From an uncultured bacterium (GTDB lineage: Bacteria; Omnitrophota; Omnitrophia; Omnitrophales; Aquincolibacteriaceae), in the NCBI GenBank assembly GCA_964606385.1, contig CAZSFZ010000009.1, positions 5,762 through 69,761 of the forward strand: a stretch of DNA of 64,000 bases, in the 5' to 3' direction. The stretch's first letter is position 1. Each line of letters begins with the position of its first letter. Below the pieces are notes generated by a model that made no database searches, was not told the origin of the DNA, and was given only the letters and a program-made list of their open reading frames with translations. Positions 6,364-21,174 of the stretch are shown here, piece after piece. Both the position numbers and the translations under genes were made by a program.

Positions 6364-7791
6364 ATGACGAAGAAACTCTTTAAGATAGAGGCCATGATCC
6401 AGAAGATCCTTTCCCTTGTCCTGCCGGTCATGCTTTTGGCCGTGCAACCGGTGTTCGCTGAAACGCCCGTCACGACGGATCAGACATGCATCGAAAAGCT
6501 GACCTTCCTTGATTTTTACCAAAAAGTTCTCGCGCATTATCCTGCACTAAAAAAACAGTACGAGAAGATCGCGCAGGCGAAGGCCCAGCGCAATCTCGCG
6601 ATATCCGACCTTTTTCCGCACGTCCAGGGCGTGTTCTCCACCGTGACGACCGATGACCCGGTCGGCGTTTTCGGGGACCTTTTGCGCCAGCAAAAATTCA
6701 CCCAGAATGATTTTTCGCTGGAGTCGCTCAACCGGCCCGATGCCCGCACGAATTACCACGTGGGGATCGAAGGGGAGATGCTGCTTTTTGATTCTTTTAA
6801 TACGATCTCAAAGATCCGCTCGGCCCGCCGGATGGTCAAGTCCGCCGACCTTGAAGCGGATTTCACGGAAATGGAGGCGGGGATCGTGGCGCTTGAAAGT
6901 TACCTCGGGCTCCTTCTCGCGCAGGAGAACTTCGATATCGTCTCGGGCGTCAAATCCGAAAGCGATCAGGATATCCGGCAGGCCGAAGACCTGAAGGAAA
7001 AAGGGATGATCCTCGGGGCGGATTATTACGCGGCCCGCGTGATCGCGGCTTCGATCGAACGCGAATACCACCGTTCGGAGGCCCTCCTCAAAAGCTCCCG
7101 CATGCTCATGAATATCCTGATGGGCGCGGACCCGGGCCTCGCGTGGGACCCCGTGGGAAAACTTCCCGAGATCAAACGGGAAGCGGTCGACCTCCGGGTC
7201 TGGCTCGCGCAGTCCTACCAGCAACGGAAAGACCTTGCCGCGATGGACCAAATGGTGGACGCGGCGCGCATCGAATCGTTCCGCCAGAAAACATCCTTTC
7301 TCCCAAAATTCTACGGTTTCGGAAGTCTTAATGAAGACGCGAACACCTGGCGCTCGGGCGGCGAGAATTTCACGGTGGGGTTCAAGGGGACCATGGATTT
7401 TCTTGATCCCGCGCTCCCGGGAAGGATCCAGAAGGCCAAGCATCAATATGAAGAGCTCAAGGCCGACCGGCAGGCGCTCCGGGACGCGATCGTCAAGGAC
7501 CTGGTGCTGGAATTGGCCCGGTATGAATCCGCGACCGCCGACCAGCCCGTCCTGAAACAGGCCGCGCAGGACGCGCAGCAGGCGAGCGAACAGACGGCCA
7601 AGCTTTATCAGGAGGGACGGAAATCCATCGCGGACCTTCTGGAGATCCGCCGCCTGCATCTGGACACCACTTCCGGTTTCCGGAGCCTCCTTATGGCGCT
7701 GGAGCTGGAGTACGCCAAATTATTATTCCTTTCCGGCCAGCTTGATGAAAACGGGCTTCGACAAGTCAACGAACGATTCAATAACCAGTAA
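6364..7791 (+). CDS. TolC-family outer membrane efflux protein (OMF)
   Basis: 475 aa with signal peptide; two repeat halves of coiled-coil/beta-barrel type. Upstream divergent promoter contains TTGACA. Confidence 0.75.
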   Translation: MTKKLFKIEAMIQKILSLVLPVMLLAVQPVFAETPVTTDQTCIEKLTFLDFYQKVLAHYPALKKQYEKIAQAKAQRNLAISDLFPHVQGVFSTVTTDDPVGVFGDLLRQQKFTQNDFSLESLNRPDARTNYHVGIEGEMLLFDSFNTISKIRSARRMVKSADLEADFTEMEAGIVALESYLGLLLAQENFDIVSGVKSESDQDIRQAEDLKEKGMILGADYYAARVIAASIEREYHRSEALLKSSRMLMNILMGADPGLAWDPVGKLPEIKREAVDLRVWLAQSYQQRKDLAAMDQMVDAARIESFRQKTSFLPKFYGFGSLNEDANTWRSGGENFTVGFKGTMDFLDPALPGRIQKAKHQYEELKADRQALRDAIVKDLVLELARYESATADQPVLKQAAQDAQQASEQTAKLYQEGRKSIADLLEIRRLHLDTTSGFRSLLMALELEYAKLLFLSGQLDENGLRQVNERFNNQ

Positions 7792-7829
7792 CACCTACGA
7801 GGTGTAGAGACACCACACCTCGTAGGTGT
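7791..7829. repeat. Perfect 15-bp-stem inverted repeat between the OMF stop and the RND RBS
   Basis: acacctacgaggtgt-agagacacc-acacctcgtaggtgt. No T-run follows, and an RBS (gagaagg) plus ATG at 7848 come next. Confidence 0.5.
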
Positions 7830-13017: not shown

Positions 13018-13302
13018 ATGGAATTCAATATTGATAAGGTCGCGGAACTTGCGCGGCTGAACCTCAAGACAGAAGAAAAATCCAAACTCGGGAAAGACCT
13101 CGGAGCGATCCTCGATTACGTCAAGAAGCTCGAGAAACTGGAAACCCGGAATATCGAGCCGACGAGCCATGTCCTGGACCTCGAGAACGTCTACCGGAAA
13201 GACGAGGTCAAACCCTCGGATGCAGCCGACAAGGCCCTGGCGCACGCCCCGCACGCCGACGGCCGTTTCTTCAAAGTTCCCAAGATCGTGCAGAGGGACT
13301 GA
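13018..13302 (+). CDS. gatC: Glu-tRNA(Gln)/Asp-tRNA(Asn) amidotransferase subunit C
   Basis: 'MEFNIDKVAELARLNL...EEK' matches the GatC N-terminus. The ORF-track 5' extension is rejected. Confidence 0.8.
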   Translation: MEFNIDKVAELARLNLKTEEKSKLGKDLGAILDYVKKLEKLETRNIEPTSHVLDLENVYRKDEVKPSDAADKALAHAPHADGRFFKVPKIVQRD

Positions 13303-13303
13303 T

Positions 13304-14752
13304 ATGGCCGATCTTTGCTCCCTGACTCTCAAAGAAGCGATTGACGTCGCGAAAAAAGACGGTGCGCAGCCGATCCTGGATGCTTTCGCGAAGCGCGCCG
13401 AGGCGCTTAATCCGACGATAAACGCGTTCCTTCGTTTTGAGCAACCCATCCGACCCCGGGGGTCGGATAAATCCGACCCCGGGGGTCGGATGGGGGAGGG
13501 GGCGCTTCACGGGGTGCCCATTTCGATCAAGGATAATATCTGCATGGAAGGCAAGGAAGTGACATGCGCGTCGAAGATCCTGGCCAAGCACGTGCCGCCG
13601 TATAACGCGACGGTCATCACCAAATTGAAAGATGCGGGCGCGACGCTTTTCGGCCAGTGCAACATGGACGAATTCGCGTTCGGTTCCTCGTGCGAAACCT
13701 CGGCCTTCGGGCCGTGTAAAAATCCCTGGGACCTGACGCGCGTGCCCGGCGGCTCTTCCGGCGGCTCCGCGGCCTCGGTTGCGGCGGACATGACACTTGC
13801 CGCGCTCGGGAGCGATACCGGCGGCTCCATCCGTCAGCCCGCCGCGCTTTGCGGCGTGGTCGGCGTGAAACCCACTTACGGACGCGTGTCGCGCTACGGC
13901 CTTATCGCGTTCGGTTCGAGTTTTGACCAGATCGGCCCCATCACAAAGACCGTAGAAGACGCGGCGATCCTGATGAATGTGCTGAGCGGCCATGACCCGA
14001 AAGATTCTACCTCCGCGCCGCAGAATGTCCCTGATTTCACGCAAGCGCTCAAGCGGGACGTCAAAGGCCTGAAGATCGGTCTGCCGAAGGAATATTTTAT
14101 CGAAGGCATCGACCCCGAGATCGAAAAAAGCGTGCGCGCGGCAGCGGACCTTTATAGGAAACTCGGCGCGGAGATCAAGACGATCTCTCTGCCTCATACC
14201 GAATACTCCGTCGCGGTCTACTATATTGTCGCCGTCGCGGAGGCAAGCTCGAACCTCGGCCGGTTCGACGGCGTAGAGTACGGCCTGCGTGTACCCACCA
14301 AAGATCTTCGCGAGATGTATTTTGAGACACGCGACCAGGGGTTCGGACAGGAGGCCAAGCGCCGCATCCTGCTCGGCACTTTTGTGCTTTCCGCGGGTTA
14401 TTATGAAGCTTACTACTTAAAGGGGCAGAAGGTCCGCACGCTCATCCGCCAGGATTTCGAGAAGGTGTTTAAAGAAGTGGATGTGATCCTTTCGCCGACC
14501 TCGCCTACACCAGCCTTCAAGATCGGCGAAAAGGCCGCGGACCCGATCGCCATGTACTTATCTGATATTTTTACAATCCCGGCGAACCTTGCAGGGATCC
14601 CCGCGATGTCCGTGCCGTGCGGTTTTACCTCAGGCGGTCTGCCCATCGGCATGCAGCTCATGGCCCGCCCGTTCGACGAGGCGACCATGCTCCGTGCTGC
14701 TTATGCGTTTGAACAAGAGGCTGGAATCCACAAAAAGAAACCGGTTCTTTAG
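13304..14752 (+). CDS. gatA: Glu-tRNA(Gln) amidotransferase subunit A
   Basis: Amidase signature 'GGSSGGSAASVAA', 'HGVPISIKDNI'. ATG at 13304 is 1 nt after the gatC stop. Confidence 0.9.
   Translation: MADLCSLTLKEAIDVAKKDGAQPILDAFAKRAEALNPTINAFLRFEQPIRPRGSDKSDPGGRMGEGALHGVPISIKDNICMEGKEVTCASKILAKHVPPYNATVITKLKDAGATLFGQCNMDEFAFGSSCETSAFGPCKNPWDLTRVPGGSSGGSAASVAADMTLAALGSDTGGSIRQPAALCGVVGVKPTYGRVSRYGLIAFGSSFDQIGPITKTVEDAAILMNVLSGHDPKDSTSAPQNVPDFTQALKRDVKGLKIGLPKEYFIEGIDPEIEKSVRAAADLYRKLGAEIKTISLPHTEYSVAVYYIVAVAEASSNLGRFDGVEYGLRVPTKDLREMYFETRDQGFGQEAKRRILLGTFVLSAGYYEAYYLKGQKVRTLIRQDFEKVFKEVDVILSPTSPTPAFKIGEKAADPIAMYLSDIFTIPANLAGIPAMSVPCGFTSGGLPIGMQLMARPFDEATMLRAAYAFEQEAGIHKKKPVL
13448..13491. 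repeat. Tandem copy of a 21-nt perfect palindrome inside the gatA coding region
   Basis: atccgaccccgggggtcggat-aa-atccgaccccgggggtcggat. It is read in-frame as 'IRPRGSDKSDPGGRM'. Confidence 0.6.
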
Positions 14753-14761
14753 GAGGTTGTT

Positions 14762-14992
14762 ATGGCGAAGACGAAGATGCCGTTCGTGATGGACATGCAG
14801 CCAGGGGAATATTACTGGTGTTCCTGCGGGGAATCCGCGAAGCAGCCGTTCTGCGACGGGTCGCATAAGACGAAGGCGCCCGGCATGCAGCCCATGAAGA
14901 CAGTGATCGATGCGTCGAAAAAGATCGCGTGGTGCGGCTGCAAAGCTTCGGGGAAGAAACCCTTTTGCGACGGGACGCATACAAAACTTTAA
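14762..14992 (+). CDS. CDGSH iron-sulfur domain protein (two CDGSH motifs)
   Basis: 'CSCGESAKQPFCDGSH' and 'CGCKASGKKPFCDGTH'. Confidence 0.8.
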   Translation: MAKTKMPFVMDMQPGEYYWCSCGESAKQPFCDGSHKTKAPGMQPMKTVIDASKKIAWCGCKASGKKPFCDGTHTKL

Positions 14993-15034
14993 ATGGTGAC
15001 GGTTATCTGTTTTTTATAGTACAGCAATAGGAGC

Positions 15035-15544
15035 ATGCGAGTGAGCCGATTTACGTCGAAAAGCATAAGGGCTCTTTTTGAAGCAAATAAAAAACAAGCT
15101 CAAAGGAAACTGAGGAGCCTTAAAGTTTGCTGCACCGACGAGCCCGATTTCGCGGGGCTCAATGGGTGGGTATTCGAACAGACGATTCAGTATTGTATTC
15201 GACAAGAACTCTTGTCCCAAGGGGTTCGTCCCAGGATTGAAGAGCAGTTTAACTTGGGCGGTCGAGCAAGAGCAGATTTGAAGATTGGTGGAAACATCGC
15301 TATCGAGATCAAAGTGGCTGGTCTTTTCAGCGAAGACGATATCTTAAAATATAAAAAATACCGTCAAATGGCAGAGCAACAAGGCTTTCGCTATCTGTTT
15401 TTGTCATGGGAGGAAAGTCATCTTCCCTTCCGGAAGGGGATTGCACGAGTTTTGGATGCAGCCAATGTCTTTTATCTTGATCGTTCACAAGACTGGAAAA
15501 GATTCATCAATGGATTGGTTGAGTTTCTCAAGAAAACCGCGTAG
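15035..15544 (+). CDS. Hypothetical protein with a PD-(D/E)xK-like nuclease motif; low-GC (~45%) insertion between gatA and gatB
   Basis: 'RADLKIGGNIAIEIKV' fits the D...(E/Q)xK core. GC is well below the neighbours. No homologous context in the conserved gatCAB operon. Confidence 0.4.
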   Translation: MRVSRFTSKSIRALFEANKKQAQRKLRSLKVCCTDEPDFAGLNGWVFEQTIQYCIRQELLSQGVRPRIEEQFNLGGRARADLKIGGNIAIEIKVAGLFSEDDILKYKKYRQMAEQQGFRYLFLSWEESHLPFRKGIARVLDAANVFYLDRSQDWKRFINGLVEFLKKTA

Positions 15545-15588: not shown

Positions 15589-17040
15589 ATGAAATTTGAA
15601 CCAGTCATCGGACTAGAAGTCCACGTGCAATTAAAAACAAAGTCAAAACTGTTCTGCTCGTGCTCGACGGAATTTGGGGCGGAGGGGAATAGCCACACAT
15701 GTCCCGTGTGCCTCGGCTGGCCGGGGTCGCTTCCGGTGGTGAATGAGACGGCGCTGAAGCTCGGGATCAAGGCTGGGCTCGCGCTCAACTGTAAAGTGGC
15801 GGAGCGCCTCAAGTTCGACCGGAAGAATTATTTCTATCCGGACCTTCCCAAGGCTTATCAGATCTCCCAGTACGATATGCCGGTGAATGGGAAGGGGTTT
15901 GTTGATGTTGAAACGAAAAGCGGGGAACGTGGAACGGGGAACGTGGAACGAAAGCGAATCGGGATCACGCGCGCACATTTGGAAGAAGATGCGGGAAAAC
16001 TTCTGCATGAAGGGATCTCGGACGGAAGCTTGGTCGATTACAACCGTGGCGGCGTGCCGCTCCTTGAGATCGTTTCTGAACCGGATATCCGCTCGCCCCA
16101 GGAAGCGTACGATTACCTTAGCGCGCTCAAAGCGATCTTGCAATACGTAGAAGTGAGCGACTGTGATATGGAAAAGGGAAGCCTCCGCTGCGACGCGAAC
16201 GTATCCGTACGGCCGGTCGGTCAGGAGAAATTCGGGACGAAAGTTGAGATCAAGAACCTGAACTCGTTCAAGATGGTGCAGAAAGCCATTCAGTACGAGA
16301 TCGAACGCCAGACGCGGGCGCTCGAGGACGGTGAAACGATCGTTCAGGAAACGCGGCTCTGGAATGACGCCAAGGGCACGACGTTCTCCATGCGTTCCAA
16401 AGAGGAAGCCCACGATTACCGTTATTTTCCGGACCCGGACCTTGTAGCGTTCACGCTTTCCAGAGAACTCGTGGACGGGATCAGGAAGACCCTGCCGGAA
16501 TTGCCGCTCGAGCGCGCGAAGCGGTTCATGAAAGATTACGGCCTTTCCGAATACGACGCTTATGTGCTGGTGCAGGAAAAGAAACTCGCGGAATATTTCG
16601 AGTCCTGCGTGCGCGAGGGCGCCGCGGCAAAGCTCGCGAGCAACTGGATCCAGAATGAACTTCTCGCGTTATTAAATGAGAAGAATATCGCGATCGAAAC
16701 ATGCCTTGTTTCTCCCCATGCGCTGGCCGGGTTGATCCGTCTTGTCGAGCAGGGGACGGTGAGCGGCAAGACTGCCAAGGATGTGCTTCAGGAAATGGCG
16801 GCCACGGGCAAAGCGGCCGACGTGATCGTCAAAGAAAAAGGTCTGACGCAAGTTTCGGATACCGGTCTGATCGAGAAAACGGTTGAGAAAGCGATCGCGG
16901 CGAATCCCACGGCGGTCGCGGAATTCAAAGCTGGGAAACAAAAAGCCTTGGGTGCGCTTGTAGGTTTCGTCATGAAAGAGACCGGAGGCAAGGCGAATCC
17001 GAAGCTTGTGAATGAAATACTCATTCAAAAGCTCGGCTAA
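15589..17040 (+). CDS. gatB: Glu-tRNA(Gln)/Asp-tRNA(Asn) amidotransferase subunit B
   Basis: 'MKFEPVIGLEVHVQL', 'KRIGITRAHLEEDAGK'. Contains an in-frame heptamer-repeat insertion at 15922-15950. Confidence 0.9.
   Translation: MKFEPVIGLEVHVQLKTKSKLFCSCSTEFGAEGNSHTCPVCLGWPGSLPVVNETALKLGIKAGLALNCKVAERLKFDRKNYFYPDLPKAYQISQYDMPVNGKGFVDVETKSGERGTGNVERKRIGITRAHLEEDAGKLLHEGISDGSLVDYNRGGVPLLEIVSEPDIRSPQEAYDYLSALKAILQYVEVSDCDMEKGSLRCDANVSVRPVGQEKFGTKVEIKNLNSFKMVQKAIQYEIERQTRALEDGETIVQETRLWNDAKGTTFSMRSKEEAHDYRYFPDPDLVAFTLSRELVDGIRKTLPELPLERAKRFMKDYGLSEYDAYVLVQEKKLAEYFESCVREGAAAKLASNWIQNELLALLNEKNIAIETCLVSPHALAGLIRLVEQGTVSGKTAKDVLQEMAATGKAADVIVKEKGLTQVSDTGLIEKTVEKAIAANPTAVAEFKAGKQKALGALVGFVMKETGGKANPKLVNEILIQKLG
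15922..15950. repeat. GGAACG heptamer array (4 units) embedded in-frame in gatB
   Basis: ggggaacgtggaacggggaacgtggaacg, read as 'GERGTGNVER'. Its 15-mer ggggaacgtggaacg is identical to copy A at the RND 3' end. Confidence 0.65.
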
Positions 17041-17125
17041 CGTGGAACGGCAAACGATGAACGCAAAAAAGAAAAATAATAAGCGTTTTCGTTCCCCGTT
17101 CCCCGTTCCCCGTTCCCCGTTTTTT
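17038..17125. repeat. GGAACGN/NCGTTCC heptamer-array palindromic element (copy C) with (CGTTCCC)x4 and a terminal T-run
   Basis: cgtggaacggcaaacgatgaacgc-A-rich loop-cgttttcgttccccgttccccgttccccgttccccgtttttt. Overlaps the gatB stop and the tsaD 5' end. Confidence 0.6.
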
Positions 17126-21103: not shown

Positions 21104-21174
21104 TGCCCCGTGGTGAAATGGTATCACACTGCCCTTTGGAGGCAAGGTTCCTGGTTCGAGCCCAGGCGGGGCAG
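21104..21174 (+). tRNA. tRNA-Gln (anticodon UUG)
   Basis: Hand-folded cloverleaf. 7-bp acceptor tgccccg/cggggca with U1:A72 and discriminator G73 (GlnRS identity elements). D-stem gtga/tcac. Anticodon loop ctTTGga. T-arm cctgg-ttcgagc-ccagg. CCA is not encoded. Confidence 0.7.

Follow-up and report, generated by a model that had tools for sequence, protein, structure and literature searches.

How do two identical, perfectly palindromic 21-mers come to lie side by side inside the coding sequence of gatA, a housekeeping gene, in an uncultured bacterium of the phylum Omnitrophota? The locus belongs to a 64,000-nt stretch of contig CAZSFZ010000009.1 (assembly GCA_964606385.1, positions 5,762 to 69,761 of the forward strand), here called the window and numbered from its first nucleotide. 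The 21-mer ATCCGACCCCGGGGGTCGGAT is found there twice on the plus strand, at 13448-13468 and 13471-13491, with AA between the copies and a period of 23 nt, and both copies are in frame in gatA, the encoded peptide being PIRPRGSDKSDPGGRMG; a preliminary description of this DNA had reported such a tandem, and we confirm it. We consider it probable that the doublet is a dispersed palindromic repeat resembling repetitive extragenic palindromic (REP) sequences and their inverted doublets, the REPINs, and that it is carried in frame in a permissive loop of GatA. The noteworthy thing is the site rather than the palindrome, as one and the same protein loop repeatedly hosts unrelated palindromes and tandem arrays.

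Tandem Repeats Finder describes the doublet as 1.9 copies with 100% match (score 88). The 21-mer differs from the minus strand by a single mismatch, the centre base, which is G in each of the two copies, and the copies are direct repeats. In shuffled windows, 21-mer matches occur with a mean of 0.03, and none of 100 shuffles gave the four strand-matches that are observed. The minimum-energy fold predicted for 13440-13500 is a single 22-bp hairpin, in which 13445-13468 pairs with 13471-13494 with one internal mismatch; the energies predicted for it are –52.5 kcal/mol for RNA (z = –7.4) and –30.7 kcal/mol for DNA (z = –7.9). The preliminary description had assigned a 10-bp hairpin to each copy. 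The palindromy of the 10-nt arms holds, but a 1-nt loop cannot sterically close a 10-bp stem, so that a single unit would fold as approximately 8-9 bp with a 3-5-nt loop, and the long hairpin spanning both copies is predicted instead. Another likeness to the repeat is seen 25 nt upstream of the doublet, at 13409-13422, where a quasi-copy AATCCGACGATAAA lies in the conserved LNPxIN codons; it equals the palindrome unit ATCCGAC(CCCGGGGGTCG)GATAAA minus the hairpin top, relatives having AATCCCAAGATCAAC there, and could be due to chance, to micro-conversion, or be a trace of local template switching.

The doublet is not an assembly artefact, because the Logan assemblies of two separate runs, SRR15237811 and SRR15237810, carry the identical sequence, matching the window exactly over 6255 and 4705 nt, doublet included. 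Assemblers are known to stumble over palindromes and short tandem repeats, and a hairpin-induced duplication had been raised in the preliminary description; given that three assemblies of the organism agree base for base, that a related species shows homologous doublets in four independent assemblies, that such doublets also come from unrelated projects, and that the reading frame is preserved, we assign an assembly or sequencing error a probability close to nil.

The open reading frame (ORF) that holds the doublet is identified as gatA because its best solved relatives are GatA subunits of GatCAB (3H0L, E = 7e-163, and 2DF4) and because it is flanked by gatC and gatB. The nearest GatA proteins all come from metagenome-assembled genomes (MAGs) of Candidatus Omnitrophota, one entry being 100% identical and the next ones 86-89%. 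In the alignment of 41 orthologs, a check proposed in the preliminary description, the columns of the catalytic Lys76, Ser151, and Ser175 are invariant and GatA is otherwise almost invariant, but the doublet segment is hypervariable in both length and sequence. Orthologs that are approximately 85-90% identical overall are wholly different in the segment between NAFLRF and GVPISIKDNI, and the distance from the R of NAFLR to the G before VPISIKDNI varies from 14 to 47 aa among close orthologs. This loop aligns to a 23-residue stretch of the Staphylococcus aureus GatA and, judging from its length variability and the alignment to 2DF4 and 3H0L, is probably surface-exposed; an AlphaFold2 model built on the 41-sequence alignment had a mean predicted local distance difference test score of 52 and was unusable.

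The DNA of relatives was obtained by one metagenome scan and by look-ups by exact protein, and the loci are designated below by L numbers. Three other lineages have a homologous doublet that agrees with that of the window in codon position and frame, ATC being the fourth codon after Phe: CAT-ATCCAACCTCGCAGGTTGGAT-AA-ATCCAACCTGCGAGGTTGGA-GCGG in L086-L089, CGT-ATCCCACCTACGAGGTGGGAT-AC-ATCCCACCTCGTAGGTGGGA-GTGG in L090/L091, and CACACACCCGGTGTGTG-GAATTCC-GCACACCGGGTGTGTG in L092 (the second unit also given as CACACCGGGTGTGTG), while the loop of L005 contains a single decayed unit ATCCCACCTACGAGGTGTGAT. The two units of the doublet are reverse complements of each other in L086, L090, and L092, with 20-bp perfect arms in L086 and L090; the window differs from this inverted arrangement in the centre base only. 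The peptides encoded by the element vary by lineage (IRPRGSDKSDPGGRM, IQPRRLDKSNLRGW, IPPTRWDTSHLVGG).

What is retained is the pairing. In a set of 13 family units, pairing holds in 89.7% of cells, compared to 73.8% in shuffles (none of 500 as high) and approximately 40% when the partners are slid; pair 5-17 is C-G in seven units, A-U in five, and G-C in one, and double-sided changes are observed in five of nine pairs. Positions A6, C7, G15, and T16 are invariant, and the unit consensus is about ATCCNACCY-loop-RGGTNGGAT, with stems of 6-10 bp and loops of 1-3 nt. Between lineages, the hairpin units are 76-86% identical, compared to 51-66% at the third-codon positions of gatA, and thus conservation of the element exceeds that of neutral sites, for reasons that have nothing to do with the GatA function. 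Its core resembles the KPTYGR motif, which can be encoded as a palindrome (CCGACCTACGGTCGG in L056), but we rejected this likeness as a coincidence, since the window encodes the motif non-palindromically. Similarly, reading the centre as a SmaI site (CCCGGG), which would have made it the restriction hotspot suggested earlier, was rejected, since this centre is not conserved in the homologous doublets.

Members of the family are also found between genes. In the window, a diverged doublet, whose second hairpin is the reverse complement of the first, separates the OEP/TolC-like and AcrB-like efflux genes (7791-7829), and the orthologous junction in L086 has a single hairpin ATCCAACCTGCGAGGTTGGAT (position 137). 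The A-T stem variant of L086's own gatA is present as single hairpins at two intergenic sites, this one and 15664 (mgtC/hisG). L005 has a family copy, TTCAACCTCGTAGGTTGAA, at position 196. Most family copies are flanked by AACC...GGTT, which lengthens the stem. The OEP/AcrB junction is itself variable, with another palindrome in L090 and none in L006 and L012. Three family sites are found in 21 kb of L086, and one diverged member, besides the gatA doublet, in the window. Within genes, hairpins with stems of at least 10 bp are represented in four gene-annotated relatives (approximately 80 kb) by the gatA-loop doublets only.

The same loop is occupied by other repeats. No loop hairpin is present in seven of 17 close orthologs with available DNA (L006, L008, L010, L011, L013, L094, and L095), and unrelated palindromes are seen in others: GGGGACAGACCCT...AGGGTCTGTCCCC, of the GGGACAG..CTGTCCC type, in L004 and L007, GTCATTCCCGCG-NNN-GCGGGAATCC plus GATCCCCGA...TCGGGGATGAC in L009, L014, and L012, and CCTCTCCC-AGG-GGGAGAGG in L093. 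In L012, the second hairpin has been multiplied locally, adding 60 nt in frame. These other loop families recur outside the loop as well, in L036 (as an inverted doublet), L016, L031, L037, L059, and at 627-668 of the window. The latter palindrome, GGGGACAGGCGTCCCGCC...GGTGGGATGTCTGTCCC, is intergenic, lies downstream of a PTPS-family gene, and belongs to the GGGACAG...CTGTCCC type seen in the loops of L004 and L007. The family GTCATTCCCGCGAAGGCGGGAATCC, which is the loop family of L009, L012, and L014, where it is translated as VIPAKAGIQ, forms an inverted REPIN-like doublet at L036 19674-19736 and occurs singly at L016 20821-20840.

More distant Omnitrophota orthologs (55-62% identity) contain in the loop perfect tandem arrays of 7- or 8-nt units in three to five copies, the unit differing by lineage: (AACGGGCA)x4, (AACCGGCA)x4, (AACTCGCC)x3, (CTACGAA)x4, (AAACTCC)x3, and (CCGAACA)x5. 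The examined loci (1.2 Mb) contain 18 perfect 7/8-mer arrays, seven of them in the approximately 60-nt GatA loop. These arrays form no stable fold, and as the unit is not divisible by three, a gain or loss of one unit would frameshift gatA.

The hypervariability of the loop, the same-site doublets with compensatory stems, the intergenic hairpins of the family, and the many orthologs without a hairpin support the small in-frame insertion element proposed in the preliminary description. The element is most likely tolerated "junk" DNA and not a regulatory device. Selfish or neutral DNA could persist here, since the Pro/Gly/Arg/Asp-rich peptide it encodes would sit in a permissive loop of an otherwise intact enzyme, and the palindromes may be kept perfect by a process acting on single-strand hairpins, with no benefit to gatA. 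One candidate process is copying by a hairpin-recognizing enzyme, e.g., a REP-associated tyrosine transposase (RAYT) or an IS200-type Y1 transposase, and another is gene conversion and template switching between arms and copies. In the window, the two units have become identical direct repeats. The hairpin itself may also draw further insertions or duplications, compare the nested expansion in L012.

Several observations weigh against this interpretation. The window copy is a direct and not an inverted repeat. The shared position and frame of the doublets, along with recombination between L092 and L093, also fit one ancient insertion. Neither a clean insertion boundary nor a target-site duplication could be defined in codon-aligned bearing and non-bearing orthologs, because the whole loop is unalignable; even in the closest pair with and without the doublet, L090 and L094, which have 95.6% amino acid identity downstream of the loop, the loop differs by 30 nt. 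The density of copies, approximately one site per 10-30 kb, is far below that of classical REPs. The exact window variant has no second copy within the 64 kb, and the exact 21-mer has no Omnitrophota match among 185,579 species-representative genomes, a collection that does not include the source genome; it is within these two sets that the uniqueness named as a refuting condition in the preliminary description was examined. Neither the 21-mer nor the family doublet pattern was found in viral contigs. Comparison of six-frame doublet peptides with 5.8 billion proteins yielded 60 word-sharing candidates, none with E <= 10, and carries no information, since a match of 15 aa is too short to be significant and a copy between genes has no translation. 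Finally, no Pfam match to a RAYT or Y1 transposase was obtained in 30 ORFs of the window or in the Pfam-annotated flanks of relatives, which says little, as RAYT genes are typically single-copy and these regions cover less than 5% of the genome.

In that collection, matches to the 21-mer were seen only in a Candidatus Shapirobacteria MAG and in Stenotrophomonas beteli; approximately 0.3-0.5 matches are expected by chance, and we rejected both as unrelated families or chance. In the former, the 21-mer, with another centre base, forms the middle of a perfect 41-nt palindrome, AGGTCCGAAGCTATCCGACCCCWGGGGTCGGATAGCTTCGGACCT, which lies between genes in three copies within 16 kb and probably represents an unrelated REP-like family whose arm is alike by chance; in the latter, it occurs once, in GGGGATCCGACCCCCGGGGTCGGATCCCC.

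Comparison with known systems shows both likeness and difference. A REPIN is an inverted doublet of REPs forming a hairpin, in which compensatory changes are common (Bertels and Rainey, 2011; PMC3116915). REPs are short G+C-rich imperfect palindromes, and the 21-nt unit (10+1+10) fits their core of approximately 20-60 nt; the inverted doublets of L086, L090, and L092 can fold into one long hairpin in single-stranded DNA or mRNA, and copies are seen at a few scattered sites, with lineage-specific variants and compensatory changes. On the other hand, the gatA copy and its homologs lie in coding sequence and not extragenically, although other copies of the family are intergenic, the spacer is only 2 nt, the units in the window are direct, the copy density is low, and we see no conserved 5' GTAG, no RAYT in the ORFs and flanks scanned, and no sequence relationship to a described REP family. 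Rickettsia palindromic elements (RPEs), according to the account of Ogata et al. (2000) in PMC10969869, are found in frame in housekeeping and metabolic genes, at positions compatible with the fold and function of the protein. As far as that account goes, the likeness is an in-frame palindromic repeat in an intact host gene, gatA having kept its frame and catalytic columns, while RPEs, compared here by description only, are approximately 100-150 bp long, have a conserved peptide, and belong to Rickettsia, whereas the gatA element has 44-54 nt, no conserved peptide, and a host from another phylum, and the GatA loop is occupied by several unrelated repeat families.

At quasipalindromic hotspots, intramolecular template switching during replication makes the arms of an inverted repeat identical (PMC7202029), which could explain the concerted change of all four arms, but this is a mutational process and not an element, and it leaves the dispersed copies of the same variant unexplained. 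Transposable elements of the miniature inverted-repeat type (MITEs), enterobacterial repetitive intergenic consensus (ERIC) sequences, and BOX-type insertions (PMC10969869, PMC3184786) are likewise small non-autonomous repeats occasionally tolerated inside ORFs, where they can produce in-frame fusions, but they are larger and have terminal inverted repeats and target-site duplications, a structure not seen in the gatA element. With the simple-sequence contingency loci, e.g., heptanucleotide repeats of Haemophilus (PMC8262952), the loop shares perfect tandem units that are not a multiple of three (23 nt here, 7 or 8 nt in relatives), but those loci reside in genes for surface or virulence traits, or in the promoters of such genes, and their copy number differs from isolate to isolate, while gatA is a housekeeping gene and no length variation has been observed. 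Membership in the REP/REPIN or RPE families is therefore not established, as the element is intragenic, has a 2-nt spacer and a low copy number, is accompanied by no RAYT in the DNA examined, and is far shorter than RPEs. We regard it as a new family of a known kind, short dispersed palindromic repeats that occasionally lie in frame in coding genes, in a phylum from which none is known to have been described; literature searches returned nothing specific.

The main rival history would dispense with transposition: one old insertion or duplication in the loop, inherited vertically and exchanged by homologous recombination, could have been perfected by template switching or slippage, the intergenic hairpins being unrelated or converted look-alikes. 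We find such a purely local origin unlikely, while acknowledging that much agrees with it. The codon position and frame are the same in the window, L086, L090, and L005; the units diverge by 14-24%, roughly tracking the gene itself, whose nucleotide divergence is 19-21%; neither the 64-kb window nor the species-representative genomes, the protein search, or viral contigs yielded a further copy of the exact window variant; hairpin units of L012 have multiplied locally, and the perfect 7/8-nt arrays of distant orthologs have been generated locally; the quasi-copy AATCCGACGATAAA lies just upstream; and the perfecting of quasipalindromes through template switching is well established as a mechanism (PMC7202029). 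Exchange of loop alleles is illustrated by the gatA genes of L092 (821-2263) and L093 (202-1632), 100% identical over the 3' approximately 800 nt, but only 42-57% at the loop, where they have different palindromes. This pair is either an intragenic recombination mosaic or a co-assembly of strains sharing the 3' part. If it is a mosaic, loop alleles are exchanged between strains and gene trees cannot count insertions; in a neighbour-joining tree of GatA with the loop masked the repeat types are indeed patchy, but we do not take this as proof of independent insertions, since recombination confounds it. A recombination hotspot, as had been suggested for the palindrome itself, is not shown by this pair, though its divergence does peak at the loop. 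What speaks for dispersal instead is the A-T variant of L086 (pair 5-17), which recurs between genes at distances of 10 kb and 5.5 kb and so calls for dispersal or conversion between loci, the presence or absence of the doublet as the difference within the closest pair, L090 and L094, and the occupation of the loop by at least four unrelated palindrome families, all of them also found elsewhere in the examined loci, so that multiple arrivals are needed in any case. A dispersed REP/REPIN-like element and local events in the loop are not mutually exclusive.

Readings that ascribe a function to the locus fare worse. A hairpin approximately 140 nt into gatA might act on mRNA or DNA, with structure selected regardless of sequence, and in mRNA it could make ribosomes pause for the assembly of GatC with GatA, provide a site for RNase III, or form a stability barrier separating gatC from gatA. 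The great stability of the predicted fold, the compensatory changes that keep pairing in several lineages, conservation above synonymous sites, and the recurrence of strong hairpins of unrelated sequence in the loop would agree with selection on structure; yet the loop hairpin is absent from seven of 17 close orthologs, the 7/8-mers of distant orthologs do not fold, and the same hairpin family occurs in unrelated intergenic contexts. Nor does the hairpin match any Rfam family: with Rfam 15 at the gathering threshold, the sole match in the window is a tRNA at 21104-21174, the hairpin giving generic microRNA- or small RNA-like stems far below the cut-offs, and no terminator-like site, intrinsic terminator or attenuator, is seen at 13445-13494, where the hairpin is followed by GGGGGAGG. 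We consider a functional structure quite improbable, and the translational pausing structure put forward earlier finds no support.

Reversible frameshifting of gatA by slippage, tuning Gln/Asn mistranslation, is what a contingency (phase-variation) locus with repeats not divisible by three would provide. In its favour are the perfect direct repeats of 23-nt period in the window and the seven of 18 perfect 7/8-mer arrays in this one loop (1.2 Mb), and lowered GatCAB function is known to raise adaptive mistranslation in mycobacteria (PMC8406222, PMC7541841). Still, the frame is intact in every assembly, an allele of the P0019 type is identical on ten contigs from several samples, and two copies are a poor slippage substrate, from which re-expansion after loss would be rare. 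Moreover, gatA is expected to be essential where glutaminyl- or asparaginyl-tRNA synthetase is lacking. The chance that the locus works in this way is very slim. Hardly greater is the one we give to a broader conjecture, that the loop is either a maintained repeat cassette, in which slippage or hairpin-mediated deletion reversibly lowers GatCAB so that a subpopulation mistranslates Gln/Asn, or a landing pad for transposases that target hairpins in single-stranded DNA.

If the doublet is a REP/REPIN-like element, Omnitrophota, an uncultured phylum, joins the few cases of short palindromic repeats in frame in an essential housekeeping gene, compare RPEs of Rickettsia. The GatA loop also shows how one protein loop can take up repetitive DNA of several unrelated kinds again and again. 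The odd peptides rich in Pro, Gly, and Arg that are met in GatA sequences from MAGs are explained in this way; loops of this kind distort alignments and trees, and the present one is a natural marker of strain-level recombination. Should a hairpin-specific enzyme mobilize the repeats, or should their length vary in populations, the locus would be a tractable system for REPIN-like elements outside Proteobacteria or for repeat-driven modulation of translational fidelity. Of all outcomes, the contingency reading, if true, would have the greatest interest, as GatCAB has been linked to mistranslation in mycobacteria (PMC8406222, PMC7541841).

Table 1. Coordinates of the doublet, its host gene, and related features (window positions unless a locus is named).
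Feature	Position	Strand	Remarks
Palindrome copy 1	13448..13468	+	ATCCGACCCC-G-GGGGTCGGAT (10+1+10); read in the gatA frame as I-R-P-R-G-S-D
Palindrome copy 2	13471..13491	+	identical direct repeat, 23-nt offset; other codon phase, (K)-S-D-P-G-G-R-(M)
Whole doublet with flanking CCC/GGG	13445..13494	+	24-nt arms 96% complementary, 2 nt between; predicted long hairpin
Hypervariable GatA loop, residues 46-67, EQPIRPRGSDKSDPGGRMGEGA	13439..13504	+	between conserved NAFLRF and LHGVPISIKDNI
Diverged family doublet, intergenic	7791..7829	+	ACACCTACGAGGTGT, 9 nt, ACACCTCGTAGGTGT; second hairpin is the reverse complement of the first
gatC (94 aa)	13018..13302	+	directly upstream of gatA, same operon; coordinates carried over from Logan gene calls on L084
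gatA (482 aa, Amidase PF01425)	13304..14752	+	frame intact; catalytic columns invariant
zf-CDGSH gene	14762-14992		gatA-gatB spacer
Gene without Pfam match	15041-15544 (L084); 15035-15544 (L085)		gatA-gatB spacer; Logan calls of 167 aa (L084) and 169 aa (L085)
gatB (483 aa)	15589..17040	+	two genes intervene between gatA and gatB
Loop 7/8-nt arrays	L041 6089-6120; L026 10193-10224; L033 7359-7382; L070 and L080 10154-10181; L072 10160-10180; L076 867-901; L064		imperfect in L064
Shapirobacteria and Stenotrophomonas 21-mer sites	L001 3371-3413 and 4058-4100; L002 2901-2943; L003 905-925		

The surroundings of the doublet are variable too. The gatA-gatB spacer (14762-15544 of the window) holds different inserted genes in different relatives: a T5orf172/MUG113 (GIY-YIG-like) protein is encoded at L086 11779-12375, an NTP_transf_2/Polbeta gene with an adjoining 132-aa gene and, further on, an 83-aa gene at L094 11485-12983, and a 335-aa protein of unknown type on the P0002 contig. 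A 10-bp hairpin, ATTCATCGGC-NN-GCCGATGAAT, is common to the spacers of two related genomes (L090 11476-11497 and L094 12454-12475).

Another insertion-tolerant site of GatA is observed at residues ~441-446 (window ~14624-14641), between GFT and LPIG. At the protein level, P0035 has here an insertion of approximately 10 aa, KKVTVTNSDSHQGCE replacing TSGG, and P0037 one of approximately 13 aa (...GTGPGSESGPVPKP), which resembles a translated palindrome of the GGGACAG...CTGTCCC type.

Just 3' of the gatB stop, the window contains (CGTTCCC)x4.6 at 17090-17121 (also 17034-17067), apparently within an N-terminal extension of the next gene, tsaD (RFRSPFPVPRSPFF ahead of the conserved LGIETSCDET), and at the orthologous gatB/tsaD junction L094 has (CGTGTCC)x4 (14518-14545), so that this junction looks like a second site with perfect heptamer arrays differing by lineage.

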